From a virus (taxonomy: Duplodnaviria > Heunggongvirae > Uroviricota > Caudoviricetes), in IMG/VR virus record IMGVR_UViG_2744054631_000001: DNA of 16,160 bases. One strand, written 5' to 3'. Made by a program: the position numbers and the translations under genes. The notes under the pieces are model-generated. The model did not search any database, was not told the DNA's origin, and was given only the letters and a program-made list of their open reading frames with translations. Below, one piece after another: positions 1 through 16,160 of this stretch; position 1 is the first letter of the stretch, and every line of letters begins with the position of its first letter.

Positions 1-105
1 TTTCACACGAAGGTCGATGCGGCGGCCAAATCGTTGTAAATCCCCGTAAAGGCAGATGCGCGCCATGCCCGGTGACGCCAGAGGGAGTGTGTGCGTCGCT
101 GCCAT
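1..105 (-). CDS. I: tail assembly protein I, N-terminal fragment (gene runs off the window start)
   Basis: Minus-strand ATG at about 103-105 translates MAATHTLPLASPGMARICLYGDLQRFGRRIDLRVK, matching the lambda gpI N-terminus as recalled. It overlaps the 3' end of K in another frame, as in lambda. Only 35 codons are in the window, so it is absent from the ORF track. Confidence 0.6.
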   Translation of the reverse strand, partial: MAATHTLPLASPGMARICLYGDLQRFGRRIDLRVK

Positions 106-746
106 TTGTCGGTGTACCTCTCTCGTTTGCTCAGTTGTTCAGGAATATGGTGCAGCAGCTCGCCATCACCACAGTAAATGGCGGCATGATTCGGCACCGA
201 TGAACCAAAACAGCACAGCAGCACATCGCCCGGTTGTGCTGATGACAACGGCACCTGATACAGCCCTGTGGCCTCCAGATTATCCAGATAGAGATTCTGG
301 CCGTTACGCCACCAGTCATCCTCACGATGAAAGTCCGGCATCTCAATCCCCGCCAGATGATAAGCATCCCGGAACAGTGTGTAACAGTCCGTCACACCGT
401 GCTCAAAGCGCCGCCCGGTGAGATGCGGCACACAGCGGAACTTATGAATCGTCCCCCGGCAGACCAGCCACCACGGCAAATCACTCTGCACCTGCAGCCG
501 CCGGTCGGCCTCACTCAGCCAGGGCAGACCACCGGGATGGCTGTGCACCAGCGCCACAATCTCACCCTGCATTTCTGCCCGCAACCAGTCCTCCGGCGAC
601 ATCCGGAAATACTCCTCCGGCTCACCAGAGATATTTACGCAGGGAAGATATCTGTCTCCCTCCGGCGTTCTCACCACAAAGCCGCACGACTCCGCTGGCG
701 CACATCGCCGGGCGTGCGCCAGAATCGCTGATTCTGTCTCTGTCAT
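3..746 (-). CDS. K: tail assembly protein K (MPN/JAB metalloprotease-like domain plus NlpC/P60-like domain)
   Basis: 247-aa ORF in the track. It carries a JAMM-type motif (HSHPGGLPWLSEAD, i.e. HxH-x7-S-x2-D) and a C-terminal Cys/His peptidase-like region, and sits directly downstream of L. The canonical lambda annotation, as I recall it, starts at the internal Met (coordinate 602, 199 aa); the longer form is needed for a complete MPN fold. Confidence 0.85.
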   Translation of the reverse strand: MTETESAILAHARRCAPAESCGFVVRTPEGDRYLPCVNISGEPEEYFRMSPEDWLRAEMQGEIVALVHSHPGGLPWLSEADRRLQVQSDLPWWLVCRGTIHKFRCVPHLTGRRFEHGVTDCYTLFRDAYHLAGIEMPDFHREDDWWRNGQNLYLDNLEATGLYQVPLSSAQPGDVLLCCFGSSVPNHAAIYCGDGELLHHIPEQLSKRERYTDKWQRRTHSLWRHRAWRASAFTGIYNDLAAASTFV

Positions 747-751
747 GGGAT

Positions 752-1450
752 TTACTGCGAAAGTTTGTTAATGGAAAGGAAGCCGCCAAAGTTGCCGACG
801 TTATTGCGGAACTTACAGCCACTCAGGCATTTGCTGCATTTATCCTTCGTGATATCGGACGTCGGCTGGTCATATTCATCCGCGACCGCCGGACCGTTAT
901 AACCGCACTCATCACCGCGATAGGTCCAGGTGCAGGTATTAGCCAGCATGATGCGCCCCGGAAAAACGGCACCATCCGTTTCCGTCGGTGTGGACAGTAC
1001 AAAAGAGGCACTGACCGCGCTCAGTTCGCTGCACTGCTCGATGCGCCAGCGGCTGATCACCTCCTGCTCCGGATCGGCGTCGCTGTTTCCGTTGACGAAG
1101 TTCACCGCATCCAGAAAACGGGCGTAAACCTTACGCCGGACCACCGTTCCGCCGACCAGACTCTGCAGATCTTCCGCCATCCCGGTGACCATACCGTACA
1201 GGTTAGAAACCGTCAGCGTGGGGCGCGTACTGGTGCCTTTACCATTCAGTTCAAAACCACTCCCCTGAATGGGATACGCCTGATACTGCCGCCCCTGCCA
1301 GGTGACCGGCTCACCTTTTTCGTTCTGCTCATTACAGAAAAAATAACGTTCTCCACCAACCTCTGTCAGATCGATTTCCCAGAGCACCACGCTGGCCGAC
1401 TGCTCCGCACGGGTGCATTCATTCAGTGTTTCCTGTCGGATATCCTGCAT
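752..1450 (-). CDS. L: tail tip assembly protein L
   Basis: 232-aa ORF matching lambda gpL in length and sequence as recalled (MQDIRQETLNECTRAEQSASVVLWEIDLTEV...). It has the C-terminal Cys cluster and overlaps M by 1 nt. Confidence 0.9.
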   Translation of the reverse strand: MQDIRQETLNECTRAEQSASVVLWEIDLTEVGGERYFFCNEQNEKGEPVTWQGRQYQAYPIQGSGFELNGKGTSTRPTLTVSNLYGMVTGMAEDLQSLVGGTVVRRKVYARFLDAVNFVNGNSDADPEQEVISRWRIEQCSELSAVSASFVLSTPTETDGAVFPGRIMLANTCTWTYRGDECGYNGPAVADEYDQPTSDITKDKCSKCLSGCKFRNNVGNFGGFLSINKLSQ

Positions 1451-1779
1451 CAGTTCACCACCTGTTCAAACTCTGCGCTGAACTCAACACGCAACATACT
1501 GACCCGCGACGACCATTTTGCGCAGGTCACCTTTATCTGCCGGTAGCCATAAGGCGGCGTCCACAGAAAGGCCTTCCAGCCCCCGTGCTCAGCCAGAAAC
1601 GACTCCAGCGCCGCGGCCTCCCAACGGGGAACAGAAAGCGTCACGCTGTACGTTTTCAGGTCAGTGTTCAGCCCGGCAGGCGCTCGCTGGGAATAGCCAT
1701 CACCAAAGCGCACCTTTCTTACGGAAGGGGCCGAAGCCACATCCATACCGGGTTTCACTTTCCAGCGGAAGGTTTTCAT
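1450..1779 (-). CDS. M: tail tip protein M
   Basis: 109-aa ORF (MKTFRWKVKPGMDVAS...) matching lambda gpM in length and position. It overlaps the H stop by 4 nt. Confidence 0.9.
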   Translation of the reverse strand: MKTFRWKVKPGMDVASAPSVRKVRFGDGYSQRAPAGLNTDLKTYSVTLSVPRWEAAALESFLAEHGGWKAFLWTPPYGYRQIKVTCAKWSSRVSMLRVEFSAEFEQVVN

Positions 1780-4322
1780 CGTCCACCTCCGGAGAACAGA
1801 CCACCATCGCGCATCTGCCCGGTCACAACATCCATTGCCGCCTTACGGGCTACGTCATAAACAGTCTTCAGCGCCTGTGGCCCTATCTGACCGTTCGTGC
1901 CGTCGTTGTTAATCACCACATGGTTATTCTGCTCAAACTTCCCGGACGCCTGCGACCGGCTGTCCGCCATACTGCCCGGTGTACCGACATAACCACCGGT
2001 GGCATAGCCGCGCATAAGCCGGTAGAGATTCCCCACGCCAATCCGACTGGTTGCCTCCTTCGTGAAGACAAATTCACCACGGTGAACAATCCCCGCTGGC
2101 TCATATTTGCCGCCGGTTCCCGTAAATCCTCCGGTCGCAAAATGGAATTTCGCCGCAGATGCCTGAATGGCTGTACCGCCTGACGCTGATGCACCGCCAA
2201 TGACACTGCCGACACTCCCGACGATCCCCACCATTGCCTGCTTAAGCAGAATTTCTGTCATCATGGACAGCACGGAACGGGTGAAGCTGCGCCAGTTCTG
2301 TTCACTGCCGGTCAGCATCGCCGCCATATTCTGTGCAATACCATCAAAGGTCTGCGTGGCAGCACTTTTAACCTGCGACATACTGTCCGTGGCACTCTCT
2401 TTCCACTCGCTCCAGCCGGACTTCAGGCCAGCCATCCAGCTCCCGCGAAGCTGGTCTTCAGCTGCCCAGGTCTTTTTCTGCTCTGACAAGACGTTATTCA
2501 GCGCCAGCGGATTATCGCCATACTGTTCCTTCAGACGCTGTTCCGTAGCTTCCCACGCTGCCTGCCGGTCAGTCACCCCCCGGCTTTTCGCATCAATGGC
2601 TGCCCGTTTTGCCCGTTGCTGCTGTGCGAATTTATCCGCCTGCTGCGCCAGCGCGTTCAGGTGCTCCTGATACGTGACCTTATCGCCAAGTGCAGCCAGC
2701 TGGCGTTTGTACTCCAGCGTCTCATCTTTATGCGCCAGCAGGGATTTCTCCTGTGCGGACAGCTGGCGACGTTGTGCCGCCTCCTCCAGTACCGCGAACT
2801 GATTTTCCGCCTTCCATAAATCCCGGCGCTGCTGGCTGATTTTCTCATTCGCTCCGGCATGCTTCTCCAGCGTCCGGAGTTCTGCCTGAAGCGTCAGCAG
2901 GGCCGCATGAGCACTGTCTTCCTGACGATCGCCCGCAGACACCTTCACGCCGGACTGTTTCGGCTTTTTCAGCGTCGCTTCATAATCCTTTTTCGCCGCC
3001 GCCATCAGCGTGTTGTAATCTGCCTGCAGGATTTTTCCGTCTTTCAGTGCCTTATTCAGTTCTTCCTGACGGGCGGTATATTTCTCCAGCGGCGTCTGCA
3101 GGCGTTCGTAAGCCTTCTGCGCCTCTTCGGTATATTTCAGCCGTGACGCTTCGGTATCGCTCTGCTGCTGCGCATTTTTGTCCTGTTGAGTCTGCTGCTC
3201 AGCCTTCTTTCGGGCGGCTTCAAGCGCAAGACGGGCCTTTTCACGATCATCCCAGTAACGCGCCCGCGCTTCATCGTTAACAAAATAATCATCCTTGCGC
3301 AGATTCCAGATGTCGTCTGCTTTCTTAAACGCAGCCTCTGCCTTAATCAGCATCTCCTGCGCGGTATCAGGACGACCAATATCCAGCACCGCATCCCACA
3401 TGGATTTGAATGCCCGTGCTGTCCTGTCTGCCCAGGTCTCCAGCGTGCCCATGTTCTCTTTCAGGCGGCGGGTCTGGTCATCAAATCCTTTCGTTGCGGC
3501 CTCGTTCGCCGCCTGCAATGCCCCGGCCTCATCGCCGGAACGCTGCAACTGAGCAACATACGCAATCTGCTCCGCCGTCACGTTATGGAACTGACGCGCC
3601 ATCGCTGTCAGCCCTGACGTCGGGTCTGTGGTCAGCTTCCCGAAGGCTTCAGCGACCTTGTCCACCTCCACGCCGGATGCAGAGGAGAAACGCGCCACAC
3701 TCTGGCTGATGGACGCAATCTGAGCCTCACCGCTTACCCCCGCCTTAACCAGTGCGCTGAGTGACTCGCTGGTCTGGTTAAACGTCAGCCCTGCCGCCTG
3801 CCCGGCTCTGGACAGGGCCAGCATACGATCTGCCGTCAGTCCCGCCTGATTACCGGAAAGGACCAGCGTTTTATTGAAATTGGACAGGGTTGAGTCACCC
3901 TGATACCAGGCATACGCCAGCGCACCGGTCGCCACCGCCAGCGAGGTGGCCCCCACCATCGGCAGGGTGATCGCACCGGCAAGCCCCCTGAACATGGGGA
4001 TCATCCCGCCGAAGGAGTCCTTCACCTGACCACCCTGTTGCAGCAGGATAAGCCACGGATTCTGCCCCCCTGCAAGCTGCGTGGCCACGTCGGTGAACTG
4101 CGCAGGCAGCATACGCATGGCAGCTTTATACTGCCCGACGGAAATCCCCGCTTTCTGTGCAGCCAGCGCCTGCCGGTTCATTGACTGTTCAACGACTGCC
4201 GCTGTTTTTTTCGCATCACTTTCCGTACCGGAAAAATGACGCCTGACTCTGGCCATCTGCTCGTCAAATCTGGCCGCATCCAGACTTAAATCAACGACCA
4301 GATCGCCTACCGGTTCAGCCAT
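1776..4322 (-). CDS. H: tail tape measure protein H
   Basis: 848-aa ORF with the long coiled-coil, Ala/Gln/Lys-rich composition and Gly-rich C-terminal region typical of tape measure proteins. The N-terminus (MAEPVGDLVVDLSLDAARFDEQ...) matches lambda gpH as recalled; lambda is 853 aa. Confidence 0.9.
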   Translation of the reverse strand: MAEPVGDLVVDLSLDAARFDEQMARVRRHFSGTESDAKKTAAVVEQSMNRQALAAQKAGISVGQYKAAMRMLPAQFTDVATQLAGGQNPWLILLQQGGQVKDSFGGMIPMFRGLAGAITLPMVGATSLAVATGALAYAWYQGDSTLSNFNKTLVLSGNQAGLTADRMLALSRAGQAAGLTFNQTSESLSALVKAGVSGEAQIASISQSVARFSSASGVEVDKVAEAFGKLTTDPTSGLTAMARQFHNVTAEQIAYVAQLQRSGDEAGALQAANEAATKGFDDQTRRLKENMGTLETWADRTARAFKSMWDAVLDIGRPDTAQEMLIKAEAAFKKADDIWNLRKDDYFVNDEARARYWDDREKARLALEAARKKAEQQTQQDKNAQQQSDTEASRLKYTEEAQKAYERLQTPLEKYTARQEELNKALKDGKILQADYNTLMAAAKKDYEATLKKPKQSGVKVSAGDRQEDSAHAALLTLQAELRTLEKHAGANEKISQQRRDLWKAENQFAVLEEAAQRRQLSAQEKSLLAHKDETLEYKRQLAALGDKVTYQEHLNALAQQADKFAQQQRAKRAAIDAKSRGVTDRQAAWEATEQRLKEQYGDNPLALNNVLSEQKKTWAAEDQLRGSWMAGLKSGWSEWKESATDSMSQVKSAATQTFDGIAQNMAAMLTGSEQNWRSFTRSVLSMMTEILLKQAMVGIVGSVGSVIGGASASGGTAIQASAAKFHFATGGFTGTGGKYEPAGIVHRGEFVFTKEATSRIGVGNLYRLMRGYATGGYVGTPGSMADSRSQASGKFEQNNHVVINNDGTNGQIGPQALKTVYDVARKAAMDVVTGQMRDGGLFSGGGR

Positions 4323-4749
4323 ACCGGACTCCTCCTGCGATCCCTTCTGATACTGTCATCAGCATTACGTCATCCTCCGTCATGTCCGCCACATACGGGG
4401 AAGCGGGGATAACTTCATTCCCGTCCGGGCCAAAACGAACGCCTCCGGCAAGCCCTGCCGCTTTCTGCATCAGCACATCATCTTCAGGCTCTTCGTCAGC
4501 CTCACGCCGGTTCAGCAGACTGAAATCCAGCGGATGCATCTCCGGATCGCTGAAAAACAGGCTGAGCACGGTGTACGTCAGCCCGGAAAAGTGCATATCC
4601 AGCAGAACATCATGAAAATAATGGGTACTGTAAAAACGGTGCCAGTCGGCATACTCCGTGGATGACATCCCGGCAAGCATGGCGCGCCAGTCGGGTCGCC
4701 CCATCTCACGCGCCAGTTTCAGGGCAAAACTCAGCTCACCGTCGAACAC
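4315..4749 (-). CDS. T: tail assembly chaperone T frame, made as the G-T fusion by programmed -1 ribosomal frameshift
   Basis: 144-codon ORF in the -1 frame relative to G, beginning at the G slippery site and overlapping the start of H. The track labels its first codon M, but it is GTG at the slip site, so this is not an independent start. Confidence 0.85.
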   Translation of the reverse strand: MFDGELSFALKLAREMGRPDWRAMLAGMSSTEYADWHRFYSTHYFHDVLLDMHFSGLTYTVLSLFFSDPEMHPLDFSLLNRREADEEPEDDVLMQKAAGLAGGVRFGPDGNEVIPASPYVADMTEDDVMLMTVSEGIAGGVRYG

Positions 4750-5153
4750 TTTCCCGCAGAAACAGGCTCTGCAGGCCCGGCGTCATCTGCCTGTTCAGGG
4801 GAATTATTCACCACAAACTCAGACATTCCGGACAGACGTAACACCACGTTTTCAGCCTGAGCAATTGCCTCCGTGGGCCAGGTGGTAAGCACTTCCTGCT
4901 CAATCTGCGTAATGGCTTCATTCATGGACGGCAGCTTTGTCTTCTGCGGATGGTTATGCCACAGAGACATCGCCACCAGAAACGCCCCGCCTCTGATAAG
5001 ATCCTCTACAGACACCTGCAGGTTGCCGCTGGATTCAGCCTTTTTTTCCTGCTCTTTCAACCAGGCAAGATGCTCAATACGCTGCAGGGCTGACAGTTCA
5101 GAAAGCGTGACGGTCACGCCGTTATATTCAAATGATTCGGTTTTCAGGAACAT
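4731..5153 (-). CDS. G: tail assembly chaperone G
   Basis: 140-aa ORF (MFLKTESFEYNGVTVTLSEL...) matching lambda gpG in length. The slippery heptamer G GGA AAG lies 6 codons before its stop. Confidence 0.9.
   Translation of the reverse strand: MFLKTESFEYNGVTVTLSELSALQRIEHLAWLKEQEKKAESSGNLQVSVEDLIRGGAFLVAMSLWHNHPQKTKLPSMNEAITQIEQEVLTTWPTEAIAQAENVVLRLSGMSEFVVNNSPEQADDAGPAEPVSAGKCSTVS
4749..4755 (-). promoter_or_regulatory. programmed -1 frameshift slippery heptamer GGGAAAG (G to G-T recoding site)
   Basis: Plus strand reads ctttccc at 4749-4755, which is GGGAAAG on the coding strand in G frame G GGA AAG. The downstream ORF T is in the -1 frame. Confidence 0.85.
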
Positions 5154-5168
5154 CGCTGACTCTCCGGA

Positions 5169-5909
5169 TTAGCTGGCGGTGACGGTGATTTCTGCAACCG
5201 CAGCAAACTCACCATTACCGGATACAACCGGAATGTTGACCTTGCCTGCGGCAACGCCGTTCACGGTGATGGTCATACCACTGACCGACACGGTGGCTTT
5301 TGTTTTATCCGAAGACACCGCACGGAAGCTCTTGTCGGTTACGCCTTCCGGCTGGAATGCCACGGTCAGCGTGGTGCTCTGCCCTTTCACTACGGACGCA
5401 CTGGCTGGCGTTACCGTCATGCCGGTTGCCGCCGTCACCGTACTGCGATCTTCAGCCATCGACGGGCGTCCCACATTGGTGACCTTCACCGTGCGGGTGA
5501 TCACTTCCTTCGCCGTCACCGCCTTACCGATACTGCTGACCCAGCCACGGAACACATCGACCGTGCCGTTCGGAAAGCGGATTTTATAGGCACGGGTATC
5601 ACCTTCATTAAACCACGCCAGCAGCGCCTGCTGCCCCTGCTCTCCGGGCATCCACGCCAGCGTGAAGCTGGTATCTCCGGCAGATTTCTGCCCCTGCCCG
5701 GTCGCAGTCCAGTCCGCATCCTCATCATCGAGATAGCTGTCTTCATAGGACTCAGCGGTCAGTTCGCCGGGCGTCAGGTCTTTAACTTTTGCCAGACGCG
5801 ACCAGTCAACGTCTGAAAGCGGGTTCGCATAAGGGTCACCGTTCCCCTTATAAACCCACAGTGTGGTCCCGGCACCTTTCACCGGCATTGTTGGATTTGG
5901 TACAGGCAT
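5169..5909 (-). CDS. V: major tail tube protein V with C-terminal Ig-like domain
   Basis: Track ORF is 5169..5939. I place the start at the internal [22 protein letters not shown] (246 aa, the lambda gpV length), which is preceded by a GAGGA Shine-Dalgarno. The C-terminal roughly 90 aa are Thr/Val-rich, consistent with the known Ig-like domain of gpV. Confidence 0.9.
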
Positions 5910-5916
5910 AGCGTCC

Positions 5917-6312
5917 TCACATTTCATAGGTAATGACATAAGTCAGATCGGCTGAACTCCACAGGCCCGCATCATCGTCGCGCCGGTAGTCATAGCCACT
6001 GGCCACCATACTGGTGATCAAATCTGACAGTGCCGGGACATCGCTCATCACCGGATAAATTCGGGACTCCATCCACGAATCCAGCTCTGAATCCGGCACC
6101 TGAGCAGGCAGGAAAACTTCAATATGCAGCTCCGCCTGCCAGGTATCACTGTCCAGCTCTTCGCCCGTGTATTCAGCGCCGGTGAGATAAACGGCAATTG
6201 CCGGAAAATCCGCCTCATCAAAAACAGCGGGGCGACCATCAAAAAGCGTCGCCCCGGTGTCATGCTTCTCCAGTGCATCCAGTACGGCTGCACGGAGTTC
6301 AGTATGTTTCAT
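5917..6312 (-). CDS. U: tail terminator protein U
   Basis: 131-aa ORF ([26 protein letters not shown]...) matching lambda gpU in length. Its start overlaps the Z stop (ATGA). Confidence 0.9.
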
Positions 6313-6887
6313 CGCTTTATTACCATCCTCAGTTGATGCTGCAGCGCATAGCCCAGCTCTTTCGGAAGACGTTCACGCCGTATCCGTTCAATATTCTGTT
6401 TAAACGCCGTGGTCAGCGGCACCGCCATCGGGATTTTCACCACATCAATGGGGTAACGGTTTTTCCCGGCCACACGCTGCATGACATGCCACCGGCCATT
6501 TTTCAGTTGCTGAATAAACGCGCCGGGAATACGACGGTTTCCCACCACAAGCACGCTGCCGCCACCTTTCAGGGATGAACGCTGCCCCTTTTTACGACGT
6601 CTGCGGCGGGAAAGGACAACCCGCGCGTTACCCAGCTTGATTACGGGCAAATCCCCCCGGTTAACCCTGATTCTGGCCTGCGGATTTTTGACCGTGGCCC
6701 TTTTCAGCCTGGCCCTTTCCTTTACCAGTTTCCGGCGTACCTTTGTCTCACGGGCAACCTGTGCCACCGACTGCGATATCGCGGATGAAGCAACGCGGTT
6801 AATGGCCATTGCGGCGGCACCGGGCACCGCCGTTCTGCTGATACGGCTTAGGTTTTCAACGGCCTGCTCAAGACCTTTTATGGCCAT
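6309..6887 (-). CDS. Z: tail completion protein Z
   Basis: 192-aa basic ORF (MAIKGLEQAVENLSRISRTAVPGAAAMAINRV...) matching lambda gpZ in length and position. Confidence 0.9.
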   Translation of the reverse strand: MAIKGLEQAVENLSRISRTAVPGAAAMAINRVASSAISQSVAQVARETKVRRKLVKERARLKRATVKNPQARIRVNRGDLPVIKLGNARVVLSRRRRRKKGQRSSLKGGGSVLVVGNRRIPGAFIQQLKNGRWHVMQRVAGKNRYPIDVVKIPMAVPLTTAFKQNIERIRRERLPKELGYALQHQLRMVIKR

Positions 6888-6898
6888 ACATCCCCCTT

Positions 6899-7252
6899 TC
6901 AGCGGCGACGGTTAACGGCAGGCGGTACGCCCCGCCCAAGCCAGAGATGACAGCTTCCGCCATCATCCGGCGAAACCCGGTCTATCCAGAAGTTTTCCTC
7001 ACCGATGGTCAGCGTGTCGCCGCGCCGCAGCTGCCGCACCTCATCAGTCCGGACAAACAGGGACGGGCTGGAGCCTTCAACGCGCACGCCCTGTCCGGCA
7101 TAGCTGATATTTTCAGGGTCATCAAAAACACCACGTATCACAGCACCGGACTGCTCACCGGATGTCATGGTGGCTGACGTTCCCATGTACCCGCGTATCG
7201 TTTCATCGGCGCAGGCAATGGCAGCATCGAACAGGTTATCGAAATCAGCCAC
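6899..7252 (-). CDS. FII: head-tail connector protein FII
   Basis: 117-aa ORF (MADFDNLFDAAIACADETIRGYMG...) matching lambda gpFII in length. It lies 12 nt downstream of FI. Confidence 0.9.
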   Translation of the reverse strand: MADFDNLFDAAIACADETIRGYMGTSATMTSGEQSGAVIRGVFDDPENISYAGQGVRVEGSSPSLFVRTDEVRQLRRGDTLTIGEENFWIDRVSPDDGGSCHLWLGRGVPPAVNRRR

Positions 7253-7263
7253 AGCGCCTCCCG

Positions 7264-7659
7264 TTATTGCATTCTGGCCAGGCCGCGCTCTGTCATTTCA
7301 GCTGCCACACCGGCAGAGACACGGAACGCCGTTCCCGGCAGCACAAATGCCACAGCCTCATCCCGCGTGGCGTGAAGTGCATCAGTATGCAGCGTCACCA
7401 GTGCCACAACCGTGACCAGATCAGCCGTATCAGTCACGGTATCCGGCTGCGCTGATACCACCTCATTTTCATGCCCGGTCAGCGCATTTTCCGGGCTGAC
7501 AGATGTGTCCTGACCGGCAGCGTCATCCGTGTCATTAAGCTCCTCTTCCAGCTCTGCCACACGGAGTGCCAGTTCTTCTTTCGTCCCCGTTAGGCTGACA
7601 TCACGGTTCAGTTGCTCACCCAGCACCTGAAGACGGGCAATCAGTTCATCTTTCGTCAT
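7264..7659 (-). CDS. FI: head completion / DNA-packaging accessory protein FI
   Basis: Track ORF is 7264..7698. I place the start at the internal MTKDELIARLQVLGEQLNRDV..., which is preceded by a strong GGAGGAG Shine-Dalgarno and matches the lambda E-FI spacing of 42 nt. Confidence 0.85.
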   Translation of the reverse strand: MTKDELIARLQVLGEQLNRDVSLTGTKEELALRVAELEEELNDTDDAAGQDTSVSPENALTGHENEVVSAQPDTVTDTADLVTVVALVTLHTDALHATRDEAVAFVLPGTAFRVSAGVAAEMTERGLARMQ

Positions 7660-7700
7660 GGACTCCTCCACAGAGAGAAAATGGCCCCGAAGGGCCATGA

Positions 7701-8725
7701 TTACGCCAGTTGTACGGACACGAACGCATCAGGGTCAGCCAGCAGCATCAGCGGTGCTGACTGAATCATGGTGAACTCACGCGCCGGATCGCCGGTGGTC
7801 ACCCAGTTTTTCGGGTAGCGGGCAGAGGCGTTAATACCTTCGCGCTGTGCGTCCGCATCCTGAATGCAGCCATAGGTGCGCAGACCGCGTGCCTGAGTGT
7901 TCCCCAGCACCATCGTGTTGTCCGGCAGGAAGTTCTTTTTGACGTCGTTTTCCACGTACTGTCCGGAATACACGACGATCGCCGTATCGCCATACCTCCC
8001 CTTATAGGACACCGCTTCGCCCAGGTCTTTTACCGCAGTCTCCAGCTCGGAATTAGAGCCGCGACGGGTATCCAGCTTCTCCTTGACGGCTTTGAAGGAA
8101 CGGAACAGCGCCCAGCCTTTCGGATCAAACACGATGATGTTCACCACACCGCTGGCGTTCAGCGCGTAGGCTTCGATATCGTCGGTCGGGTCATACGTGG
8201 ACTTGTCACGCTTGCTCCACTCCGTGCCACCGGACTGTGTGATGTTGTTCGCCGCACTGCGGCCCATATCCACCTCAACCGGATCGAAGGCTTCACCGGT
8301 CATGGTGTATTTGCCCTTGAGCACAGCAGAAACTGCCTGCATCTCTTCGACCTGAGCAATGGCAAGCTCCTCATCACGCATGTTTTGCATGATGATGCGA
8401 CGGCGGCGGTAAGCCGGATCCGCCAGATTCTGTGGATCTTCATCCGGCAGGCGACGCAGGGTCATCTGCGGATTCACCTCATGCTTCGGCTTGACATATC
8501 CCGGCGTAAATTCAGAGGTGGAGCCACCACGGGAGCGGATAACCTCACCGGAAACAATTGGCGAAACGTACAACGCCATGTTTACCAGTCCCGGAATTTG
8601 TGAGAGATAGACTTTCTCCGTGGTGAAGGGATAGCTCTCACGGAAAAGAGACGCAGAAACAGCGGATCAAACTTAAATTTCTTCTCATTTGCCGCCAGCA
8701 GCTGGGCGGTTGTGTACATCGACAT
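7701..8725 (-). pseudogene. E: major capsid protein E, reading frame disrupted by a 1-nt deletion near codon 27
   Basis: The track ORF 7701..8579 (292 aa) begins at the Met that is residue 50 of lambda gpE (MALYVSPIVSGEV...). The true N-terminus (MSMYTTAQLLAANEKKFKFDPLFLRLF...) is encoded from an ATG at about 8725 in a different frame and stops after 47 codons. The D-E spacing (56 nt) matches lambda, but the gene spans 1025 nt instead of 1026. The shift maps to the A-run at about 8644-8647 on the plus strand (T4 on the coding strand where T5 is needed). Confidence 0.7.
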
Positions 8726-8738
8726 AAAAAAATCCCGT

Positions 8739-8759
8739 AAAAAAAGCCGCACCGGCGGC
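8739..8759 (-). terminator. GC-rich hairpin followed by a U-run between D and E (intrinsic-terminator-like)
   Basis: Minus-strand RNA would read AAAGGCCGC-CGGU-GCGGCUUUUUUU: a 5-bp GC stem (extendable by A-U and G-U pairs), a 4-nt loop and a 7-U tract. It lies between the D stop (8781) and the E start (8725). Confidence 0.35.
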
Positions 8760-8780
8760 CTTTAGTGATGAAGGGTAAGG

Positions 8781-9113
8781 TTAAACGATGCTGATTGCCG
8801 TTCCGGCAAACGCGGTCCGTTTTTTCGTCTCGTCGCTGGCAGCCTCCGGCCAGAGCACATCCTCATAACGGAACGTGCCGGACTTGTAGAACGTCAGCGT
8901 GGTGCTGGTCTGGTCAGCAGCAACCGCCAGAATGCCAACGGCAGCACCGTCGGTGGTGCCATCCCACACAACCAGCTTACGGGTGGAGGTGTCCAGCATC
9001 AGCGGGGTCATTGCAGGCGCTTTCGCACTCAATCCGCCGGGCGCGGTTGCCGTATGTGCCGGGTCACTGTTGCCCAGCGGCTGGTAATGGGTAAAGGTTT
9101 CTTTGCTCGTCAT
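8781..9113 (-). CDS. D: head decoration protein D
   Basis: Track ORF is 8781..9119. I place the start at [27 protein letters not shown]... (110 aa, the lambda gpD length), 10 nt after the C stop with an AAGGGA Shine-Dalgarno. Confidence 0.9.
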
Positions 9114-9122
9114 AAACATCCC

Positions 9123-9728
9123 TTACACTGGTGTGTTCAGCAAATCGTTAACGGCATCAGATGCCGGGTTACCTGCAGCCAGCGGTGCCGGTGCCCCCTG
9201 CATCAGACGATCCAGCGCAGTGTCACTGCGCGCCTGTGCACTCTGTGGTGCAGCTGCCAGAATGCGGCGGGCCGTTTCCACGGTCATACCGGGGGTTTCG
9301 GCCAGCACGCGTGCCTGTTCTTCGCGTCCGTGAGCCTCCTCACAGTTGAGGATCCCCATAATGCGGCTGTTTTCTGCCGCAACCGCTGCGGTGATCTGCG
9401 CGTTCACATCCGGCTGCGCCGCGCTGGCGTTTTTGCCCTCCGTCGCTTGCACCACGCCAGTAACGTCAGCCTGCGAAGCAGTGGCTGAAACAGTTGTTGA
9501 TTGAGTCTCTTTGGTCATTCGCCCTCCTGAGAGACGGGATTTACGTGTATCCAGTGCATCACGCATGACGGTGATCGCATCGGTACTGTTAACAAGTTCA
9601 TCAGCCAGTCCGGCATCAATGGCCTCCTGACCGCTGTACACTGCAGCCTCGGTATCCAGCACAGCCTGCACGGACAGGCCGGTATATGCCGATACCTTCT
9701 GTGCAAACATCCGGCGGGTTGCATCCAT
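9123..9728 (-). CDS. Nu3: scaffolding protein Nu3, nested in-frame in the 3' part of C
   Basis: An internal in-frame ATG at 9726-9728 (MDATRRMFAQKVSAYTGL...) lies 714 nt after the C start, as for lambda Nu3. It shares the C stop and has an acidic, Ala-rich composition typical of scaffolds. Confidence 0.6.
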   Translation of the reverse strand: MDATRRMFAQKVSAYTGLSVQAVLDTEAAVYSGQEAIDAGLADELVNSTDAITVMRDALDTRKSRLSGGRMTKETQSTTVSATASQADVTGVVQATEGKNASAAQPDVNAQITAAVAAENSRIMGILNCEEAHGREEQARVLAETPGMTVETARRILAAAPQSAQARSDTALDRLMQGAPAPLAAGNPASDAVNDLLNTPV

Positions 9729-10422
9729 CCGGGACTGCAGTGTTTCCCGGACATCATCCGGTAGATGGCTGTAGGGGTTGCCATCCACCTTATGGCTGCC
9801 GCTGTAAATCAGCGTGATTTCCACGCCCTGTTTCTCCAGCGCAGCGCCGTAATTACTGTGAGCCATCATGACGCCGATGGAGCCTGTCCGGGCGGTCTGC
9901 GTGACCAGACGCCGGGAGGCGGCACTGGCAAGCAGCTGACCTGCACTGCAGTTCATGTCGTTGGCCAGCGCCCATACCGGTTTTATGTCACGCACACGGG
10001 CGATGATGTCAGCGCAGTCAAATGCCCCCGCCACCATCCCGCCGGGCGTGTCCATATCGAGCAGAATGCCGTCCACCATCGGATCGCTGGCAGCCTGTTG
10101 CAGACGGGCGATAATGCCGTTGTAACCGGTCATCCCCGAATACGGCTGCAGCGCCCGCGTCCGGCTGACCAGCGTGCCGGAAACCGGCAGCACGGCGATG
10201 CCGTTCATGACCTGATAACTGCGGGCCTGTCGTGGTCCGTCATCATCACCGGATAACGCCAGCGTCGCGGGTGTCTCCGGGGCAGTCAGGCTGTCACCGG
10301 ACACCGCATCTGTCAGGCGGCTGATCCCAAGCTGGCCTGCTAGCGCACAAAAGAAAACCCGCGCATAGGCGGGTTCAAGCATCAGCGGCTCATTAAAGGC
10401 CATGCTGGCAATATGCGGGAGA

Positions 10423-10442
<20 letters not shown>
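9123..10442 (-). CDS. C: head maturation protease C
   Basis: Track ORF is 9123..10556. I place the start at the GTG of VTAELRNLPHIASMAFNEPLMLEP..., which is preceded by AGGAGG 6 nt upstream. This gives 439 aa (the lambda gpC length) and the lambda-like 20-nt overlap with the B stop. Confidence 0.85.
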
Positions 10443-14123
<3,681 letters not shown>

Positions 14124-14149
<26 letters not shown>

Positions 14150-14669
14150 TCAGCAACCCCGGTATCAGTTCATCCAGTGCGGCTGCTTTGTTCATGGCTT
14201 TGATGATATCCCGTTTCAGGAAATCAATATGTCGGTTTTCCAGTTCCGGAAAACGCCGCTGCACCGACAGGGGGATCCCGTCGAGAATACTGGCAATTTC
14301 ACCTGCGATCCGCGACAGCACGAAAGTACAGAATGCGGTTTCCACCACTTCAGCGGAGTCTCTGGCATTCTTCAGTTCCTGTGCGTCGGCCTGCGCACGC
14401 GTAAGTCGATGGCGTTCGTACTCAATAGTCCCTGGCTGGAGATCTGCCTCGCTGGCCTGCCGCAGTTCTTCAACCTCCCGGCGCAGCTTTTCGTTCTCAA
14501 TTTCAGCATCCCTTTCGGCATACCATTTTACAACGGCGGCAGAGTCATAAAGCACCTCATTACCCTTGCCACCGCCTCGCAGAACGGGCATTCCCTGCTC
14601 CTGCCAGTTCTGAATGGTACGGATACTCGCACCGAAAATGTCAGCCAGCTGCTTTTTGTTGACTTCCAT
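14124..14669 (-). CDS. Nu1: terminase small subunit Nu1
   Basis: 181-aa ORF (MEVNKKQLADIFGASIRTIQNWQEQGMPVLRGGGKGNEVLYDSAAV...) with an N-terminal winged-HTH DNA-binding region. It is the first gene downstream of cos, as in lambda. Confidence 0.92.
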
Positions 14670-14689
14670 TGTTCATTCCACGGCCAAAA

Positions 14690-14895
14690 ACAGAGAAAGG
14701 AAACGACAAAGGCCAAAAAGCCCGTTTTCAGCACCTGTCGCTTCCTTTCTTTTCAGAGGGTATTTTAAATAAAAACATTAAGTTATGACGAAGAAGAACG
14801 GAAACGCCTTAAACCGGAAAATTTTCATAAATAGCGAAAACCCGCGAGGTCGCCGCCCCGTAACCTGTCGGATCGCCGGAAAGGACCCGCAAAAT
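14690..14895 (-). other. cos packaging site (cosB with R-type terminase-binding repeats, cosN, cosQ)
   Basis: The plus strand reads aggtcgccgccc at about 14847-14858, the reverse complement of the lambda 12-nt cohesive end GGGCGGCGACCT. It is flanked by cgtaacctgtcg (right-end side). Nu1-binding-type repeats lie between cosN and Nu1: ggaaacgacaaagg at about 14698-14711, its inverted copy acctgtcgcttcc at about 14733-14745, and gacgaagaagaacggaaacgcc at about 14788-14809. Confidence 0.85.
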
Positions 14896-15057
14896 GATAA
14901 TAATTATCATCTGCATGTCACAACGTGCATCTACGCCATCAAACCACGTCAAATAATCAATTATGACGCAGGTATCATATTAATTGATCTGCATCAACTT
15001 AACGTAAAAACAACTTCAGACAATACAAATCAGCGACACTGAATACGGGACAACCTC

Positions 15058-15291
15058 ATGTCAACGAAGAACAGAACCCGCAGAACAACAACCCGCAACA
15101 TCCGCTTTCCTAACCAAATGATTGAACAAATTAACATCGCTCTTGATCAAAAAGGGTCCGGGAATTTCTCAGCCTGGGTCATTGAAGCCTGCCGCCGAAG
15201 ACTGTGCTCAGAAAAAAGAGTTTCGCCTGAAGCAAACAAAGAAAAGAGTGACATTACTGAATTGCTCAGAAAGCAGGTCAGACCAGATTGA
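15058..15291 (+). CDS. small hypothetical protein, possible ribbon-helix-helix DNA-binding protein
   Basis: 77-aa ORF on the strand opposite the late operon. After a very basic N-terminus (MSTKNRTRRTTTRN) it shows a beta-strand / helix / G-S-G turn / helix pattern (IRFPNQMIEQINIALDQKGSGNFSAWVIEACRRRL) resembling an RHH fold. The assignment rests on pattern only. Confidence 0.5.
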   Translation: MSTKNRTRRTTTRNIRFPNQMIEQINIALDQKGSGNFSAWVIEACRRRLCSEKRVSPEANKEKSDITELLRKQVRPD

Positions 15292-15348
15292 AGCAATTTA
15301 GATAATCGTGCAGACTAGGTACCTTCATATCACATGGAAGGTACTACA

Positions 15349-15759
15349 ATGGCTCAGGTTGCCATTTTTAAACAAATATTCGATAAAGTGCGAAATAATT
15401 TAAACTATCACTGGTTTTATTCTGAACTAAAACGTCACAATGTCTCACATTACATTTACTATTTAGCCACAGAGAATATTCATCTTGTTCTTGAAAACGA
15501 TAATACGGTTTTAATAAAAGGACAGGGTAAGGTTGTAAATGTAAGATTTTCAAAAAATAAATGCCTTATAGAAGCCACATTAAAAGGATTCAAATCAGGA
15601 GAGTTATCATTTTACGAATACAGGAAAAATCTTGCTACAGCAGGGGTTTTCAGATGGATTACAAATATCCACGAAAACAAAAGGTATTACTATACCTTTG
15701 ATAATTCATTACTCTTTACTGAGAACATTCAGAACACTACACAAATATTTCCGCACTAA
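15349..15759 (+). CDS. hypothetical protein from an AT-rich accessory (moron-like) gene
   Basis: Track ORF is 15334..15759. The likely start is the second ATG ([17 protein letters not shown]...), preceded by GGAAGG about 8 nt upstream. The region is markedly AT-rich and rich in Asn/Tyr/Lys/Ile compared with the GC-rich structural genes. It may correspond to the uncharacterised protein family found beside bor in lambdoid prophages, but I recall this only vaguely. Confidence 0.55.
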
Positions 15760-16160
15760 ATCATAACGTCCGGTTTCTTCCGTGCCAGAACCGGACTCGC
15801 TGGCATGATGAAATATGTGTACCCGGTAACCCCGGTGTGCATCGTTTTTGATTATTCCCGCACACTCGCGCAGAAGGAGTTCCCCGTCGGGCTACGGTCT
15901 CTGTTAATACGGGAATACGGCGACGATACAGCGCATGATGTGTCAGGCTTGAATACCTTTATCCTTTAAAAGGGATATCAGTTAAGTTATCCCGTGTAGG
16001 TATAAGCCATTATCAAAGCCACTCTGTAGGGAATGGCTTTTGTGATGGCATCACTTACTCTTTACGCTGCTATCCCACTCATCCCGGAATTTTGATGGGT
16101 TATTGAAACCTTCTGCTGACATAACAACTCCTTCAATGTTTGAACCGCCCCGGAAATCCT

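Follow-up and report, generated by a model that had tools for sequence, protein, structure and literature searches.

Point mutations, deletions and IS insertions all contribute to the decay of cryptic and defective lambdoid prophages in Escherichia coli, which usually carry many lesions or deletions. In phage lambda, whose morphogenesis genes provide the closest described system for the locus considered here, the capsid is built from about 400 copies of the major capsid protein gpE, the product of gene E. This protein has the HK97 fold (PDB 7VI9, 7SJ5), and a strand of its N-terminal arm combines with the N-terminus of gpD and the E-loop of a neighboring subunit in a four-stranded sheet that staples the capsomers together (PMC5701804). 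We have analyzed a stretch of 16,160 nucleotides (hereafter, the window) that carries the head and tail genes of a lambda-like prophage in the same minus-strand order as lambda itself (Nu1, A, W, B, C, D, E, FI, FII, Z, U, V, G/T, H, M, L, K). It departs from lambda in gene E, which is 1025 rather than 1026 nt long and loses its reading frame past codon 27.

Results

The source contig and its closest relatives

The window is the complete 16,160-bp contig LSBW01000136.1 of the draft assembly GCA_001641925.1, from E. coli TN1. A literature search on LSBW01 and TN1, for a primary paper or the platform used in sequencing, returned only a citing paper, which gives the name and origin of the strain, isolated from a human in Vietnam and carrying mcr-1 (PMC5324782). 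The same prophage segment is found in three complete E. coli chromosomes, AP021944, CP123260 and CP114592, whose BLAST matches span positions 1-16142 of the window at about 100% identity. AP021944 was aligned with the window base by base, while CP123260 and CP114592 were compared by BLAST summary only, their scores placing them as close to the window as AP021944. Over the 16,142 bp, window and AP021944 are distinguished by four small differences, two one-base deletions and two transitions.

When the annotation of AP021944 was mapped to the window (K, L, M, tape measure, G/T, V, U, Z, FII, FI, D, C, portal, W and Nu1), 17 of the 18 coding sequences other than E translated identically, the large terminase subunit being one residue off (R141W). 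This bears out the statement of an earlier note on this DNA that the other morphogenesis genes are intact. The FI frame (7264-7698, minus strand) opens at an ATG 2 nt past the E stop and encodes 144 aa, in agreement with the source record; in RefSeq relatives FI is annotated from an internal start as a protein of 131 aa, leaving the start site ambiguous.

Anatomy of the break in gene E

Four features describe gene E as deposited:

7701..8725, minus strand: gene E, encoding a lambda-type major capsid protein, in two frames; 1025 nt versus 1026
8644..8647, minus strand: T4 run (plus-strand A4; T5 in relatives) with a one-base loss, at codons 27-28; alignment gap after 8643
8582..8725, minus strand: 47-codon N-terminal fragment, consisting of 27 gpE codons and 20 out-of-frame codons, then TAA
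7701..8579, minus strand: 292-codon open reading frame, whose start ATG corresponds to gpE Met50 and lies 2 nt past the premature stop

Translation from the ATG at 8725 yields MSMYTTAQLLAANEKKFKFDPLFLRLF, which corresponds to residues 1-27 of a lambda-type gpE. The break site reads cTCTTTTCCg, with TTTT at 8647-8644, and continues CCGTGAG, where relatives have TTTTT-CCGTGAG. Past the T4 run the frame reads SVRAIPSPRRKSISHKFRDW and ends at the TAA at 8584-8582. The ATG at 8579-8577 then opens the 292-codon frame, which reaches the normal E stop at 7703-7701, such that stop and restart are arranged as TAA-AC-ATG. A single unbroken open reading frame of about 341 codons is therefore absent from the deposited E, its place being taken by frames of 47 and 292 codons.

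The identity of the product as a member of the lambda-type capsid family is supported by both profile and gpE matches. The 292-aa frame matches positions 47-328 of the 329 in Pfam Phage_cap_E (PF03864) with an E value of 4e-60, while a Pfam search with the 47-aa N-terminal piece found no match; the base-restored orthologue covers profile positions 1-328. With the base restored, E encodes the same 341-aa protein as AP021944; the alignment of this protein with lambda gpE (PDB 7VI9) runs from end to end, over residues 1-341, with 9 substitutions (E value 1e-223). The orthologue is 1026 nt long in every E. coli genome and phage record among the matches listed, including 25 of 25 phage records.

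Most of what the earlier note had read from the letters is upheld by these comparisons. Its proposal that E is split by the loss of one base agrees with the finding that the only E-internal difference from AP021944 is A5 to A4; the span of 1025 nt that it set against an intact 1026 is matched by orthologues of 1026 nt in every listed relative; and the gap is placed by base-by-base alignment at the plus-strand A4 run (8644-8647) that it had named. Two details need correction. The number of codons matching gpE before the break, given as 26, is 27 by translation. The 292-codon open reading frame exists as described, but the second frame does not begin at residue 50: it is open from the run itself, that is, from residue 28 on, and residue 50 is its first start codon.

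Differences private to the contig

Beyond the break in E, four further features set the contig apart from its relatives, all of them placed by alignment with AP021944:

11008, minus strand: plus-strand C to T, synonymous at portal L339
13729, minus strand: plus-strand G to A, giving R141W in the large terminase subunit
15999..16000, no strand assigned: intergenic one-base run deletion, GG versus GGG in relatives
16143..16160, plus strand: contig end that diverges from all relatives, (TG)AACCGCCCCGGAAATCCT

The terminase change R141W is non-conservative and falls in the N-terminal half of the large subunit. A search of 5,426 complete E. coli genomes with 61-66-mers centered on each small difference showed all four differences to be private to the window contig, the T4 allele of E having an exact match in one of 3,056 complete-genome records (CP017251, considered below). 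The A allele at 13729 matched none of 2,166 records exactly, the T allele at 11008 none of 2,751, and the GG allele at 15999-16000 had no full-length exact match in 2,496 (best 98.5%, with one gap). A 44-mer with T4 found no match in IMG/VR, where the corresponding T5 45-mer matches at least 120 contigs, and the T4 allele was likewise not found in metagenome contigs or species-representative genomes. With one occurrence in 3,056 E. coli records and none in the other collections, T4 is ruled out as a segregating allele. Exact protein look-up returned nothing for the 292-aa E frame and, for the R141W terminase, the source contig alone, with no independent copy or assembly of the TN1 lineage.

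The possibility that the contig is a collapsed-repeat consensus of two prophage copies was also rejected, because alleles of a second copy should recur among thousands of copies, yet all four are private.

The window thus contains private indels and private substitutions in a ratio of 2:2. In E. coli mutation-accumulation studies the ratio of indels to substitutions is about 1:10; at that ratio, about 0.2 indels would accompany two substitutions, and two or more indels have a Poisson probability of about 0.02. The window has 15 runs of 6-7 bases, each of which agrees with the relatives. Error and genuine slippage alike favor long runs, and run-length statistics therefore do not tell the two apart.

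The contig closes about 18-20 nt into sequence that has no counterpart in the relatives, the junction being at 16142/16143. This terminal sequence, (TG)AACCGCCCCGGAAATCCT, bears what we take to be a resemblance to the terminal inverted repeat of an IS3-family (IS629-like) element, and the contig would break at 16143-16160 on account of this apparent IS end. None of the 128 complete E. coli genome records with the same flank contains the junction, and a 41-mer across it is absent from the metagenome and species-representative genome collections. Judged from its sequence, the contig end implies a putative private insertion with the DUF1398 gene on one side and the lysis-side genes on the other.

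The other T4 record

The only other record with T4 in E is CP017251, from E. coli O157:H7 strain 86-24. Its annotation lists four head genes as frameshifted, namely large terminase, W, portal and E; in RefSeq, where the record is labeled "complete", the prophage head module with these four annotated pseudogenes lies at NZ_CP017251.1 2599554-2605994. Comparison with CP038408, an independent assembly of the same strain, revealed nine single bases missing from CP017251 over 6.4 kb, all of them in mononucleotide runs and the E run among them. Because these nine run losses are absent from the second assembly of strain 86-24, the T4 of CP017251 is an assembly artefact, and the four head pseudogenes are almost certainly artefacts as well. 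It follows that the same run of E has been undercalled before in a public assembly. The change there is identical to that in the window, T5 to T4 at the identical site of an orthologous E, although the density of losses differs, with nine run deletions in 6.4 kb there versus two in 16 kb here. Across thousands of sampled copies, these records provide no verified case of a natural T4 allele.

Discussion

The base missing from E was probably lost in base calling or consensus building, as an undercall of the five-base T/A run in a draft assembly. According to this proposal, the real TN1 prophage would carry an intact 341-codon E, like its relatives, and no biological mechanism would be needed, the loss being purely technical. 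We infer a technical cause from a deletion that is present in the contig, lies in a run, is private to the contig and is accompanied there by a second deletion of the same kind. An artefact is favored because the contig is unfinished and comes from a single source, because two private run deletions, one of which lies in neutral DNA, occur within 16 kb, because the private indel to substitution ratio is 2:2 where about 1:10 is expected, because T4 is otherwise seen only in the artefactual CP017251, and because the remaining head/tail module is intact and matches that of relatives with a working E. Two marks of a homopolymer artefact are thus found in the one contig examined, a run indel that is private to a single assembly and a further like indel, GGG to GG, in neutral DNA.

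The principal rival is that the frameshift is genuine and very recent, having arisen by replication slippage in the T5 run and left a capsid-null but otherwise intact lambda-like prophage; we regard this as possible, though less probable than the technical explanation. The deletion is, after all, present in the deposited sequence, and the same copy bears other private changes, namely R141W, the synonymous portal change and the 16142/16143 junction. The two transitions and the insertion junction are not readily dismissed as errors, and they argue for a real private history of this copy. Mismatch-repair deficiency yields a spectrum of transitions and run indels, so that a host of this kind would account for the two transitions and two run deletions by one cause, although no more than a few percent of natural isolates are mutators. 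Slippage in runs is the main source of genuine indels, and the location of the loss in a run therefore suits a real mutation too. The sequencing technology may bear on the question in the same direction: if the contig derives from high-coverage Illumina data, consensus indel errors at its 5-base and 3-base runs would be unusual, as a well-covered consensus from that platform rarely errs at runs of these lengths, and the 15 runs of 6-7 bases match those of the relatives, whereas flow-based platforms make most of their errors at long runs. Against a genuine mutation stand the excess of indels over substitutions, the location of the second run deletion in neutral DNA, and the fact that T4 is shared by no relative and is artefactual in the sole other public record. 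The earlier note had offered a defective prophage as its lead reading and homopolymer error as the alternative. The anatomy on which both depend is confirmed and both outcomes are possible, but the lead reading is the less likely of the two because the allele is private, a second run deletion is present, the indel to substitution ratio is 2:2 and the only other T4 is an artefact. A defective prophage would be recognized by a lesion that inactivates an essential gene and is verified as biological, for which the lesion in E, as present in the deposited sequence, is a candidate; multiple lesions were not found in the window, which otherwise shows one missense substitution and, outside the structural genes, an apparent IS junction. 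If the change were real, a single inactivating frameshift with an apparent IS end nearby would resemble the first step in the decay of cryptic lambdoid prophages, while the many lesions or deletions usual in those elements contrast with the 17 of 18 other coding sequences that are identical here to those of intact relatives.

A further possibility, that full-length gpE is restored by ribosomal −1 frameshifting or by transcriptional slippage at the E run, as occurs in G/G-T, is extremely improbable, and programmed recoding was rejected on the grounds that the arrangement is not conserved and a slippery site is lacking. On paper, a −1 shift after TTT does restore the E frame, and the same window contains a true shift site, the canonical lambda G/G-T −1 site GGGAAAG (4749-4755, minus strand), in the overlap of the open reading frames at 4731..5153 and 4315..4749. 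The split E is not a conserved arrangement among the relatives, however: apart from the artefactual CP017251 (one of the 3,056 records), other copies have T5 and a continuous 1026-nt frame. The break site itself, CUC UUU UCC, contains no slippery heptamer of the form X XXY YYZ, C-UUU-UCC failing to fit the pattern, and a run of four is too short for the polymerase to slip efficiently. Furthermore, a capsid that needs about 400 copies of gpE could not be served by a trace product.

If the frameshift is nevertheless real, the translation product of E would be a 47-residue peptide, and re-initiation at the ATG 2 nt past the stop could yield a gpE without residues 1-49. Such a protein would lack the N-terminal arm and would not be expected to be assembly-competent. 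The prophage would then act as an inducible killer, able to lyse its host but not to package anything, except where gpE came from another resident lambdoid prophage; such a co-resident could also repair E by recombination. The complete-genome search found up to 5 copies of the E segment per E. coli genome, and complementation in trans is therefore conceivable. Genes for E that are about 99.5% identical to that of the window also occur on separate records of some complete assemblies, NZ_CP055252.1 (46,914 bp) and NZ_JBRAXZ010000005.1 (35,995 bp), and the gene has 23 places on plasmid-classed records; the separate 36-47 kb records may be lambda-like genomes that were assembled as free circles.

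Neither an artefact nor a recent mutation would be new, and the case is ordinary either way; it is relevant to those who would induce the TN1 phage or score prophage intactness automatically, and little beyond. If the missing base is an artefact, a lone run frameshift in a draft contig is poor ground for calling a prophage defective. If instead it is real, which we consider rather unlikely, E would have taken the first lethal hit, just arisen, in an otherwise perfect lambda-like prophage of a human, mcr-1-carrying and perhaps mismatch-repair-deficient E. coli, and the event would represent routine prophage decay by slippage.
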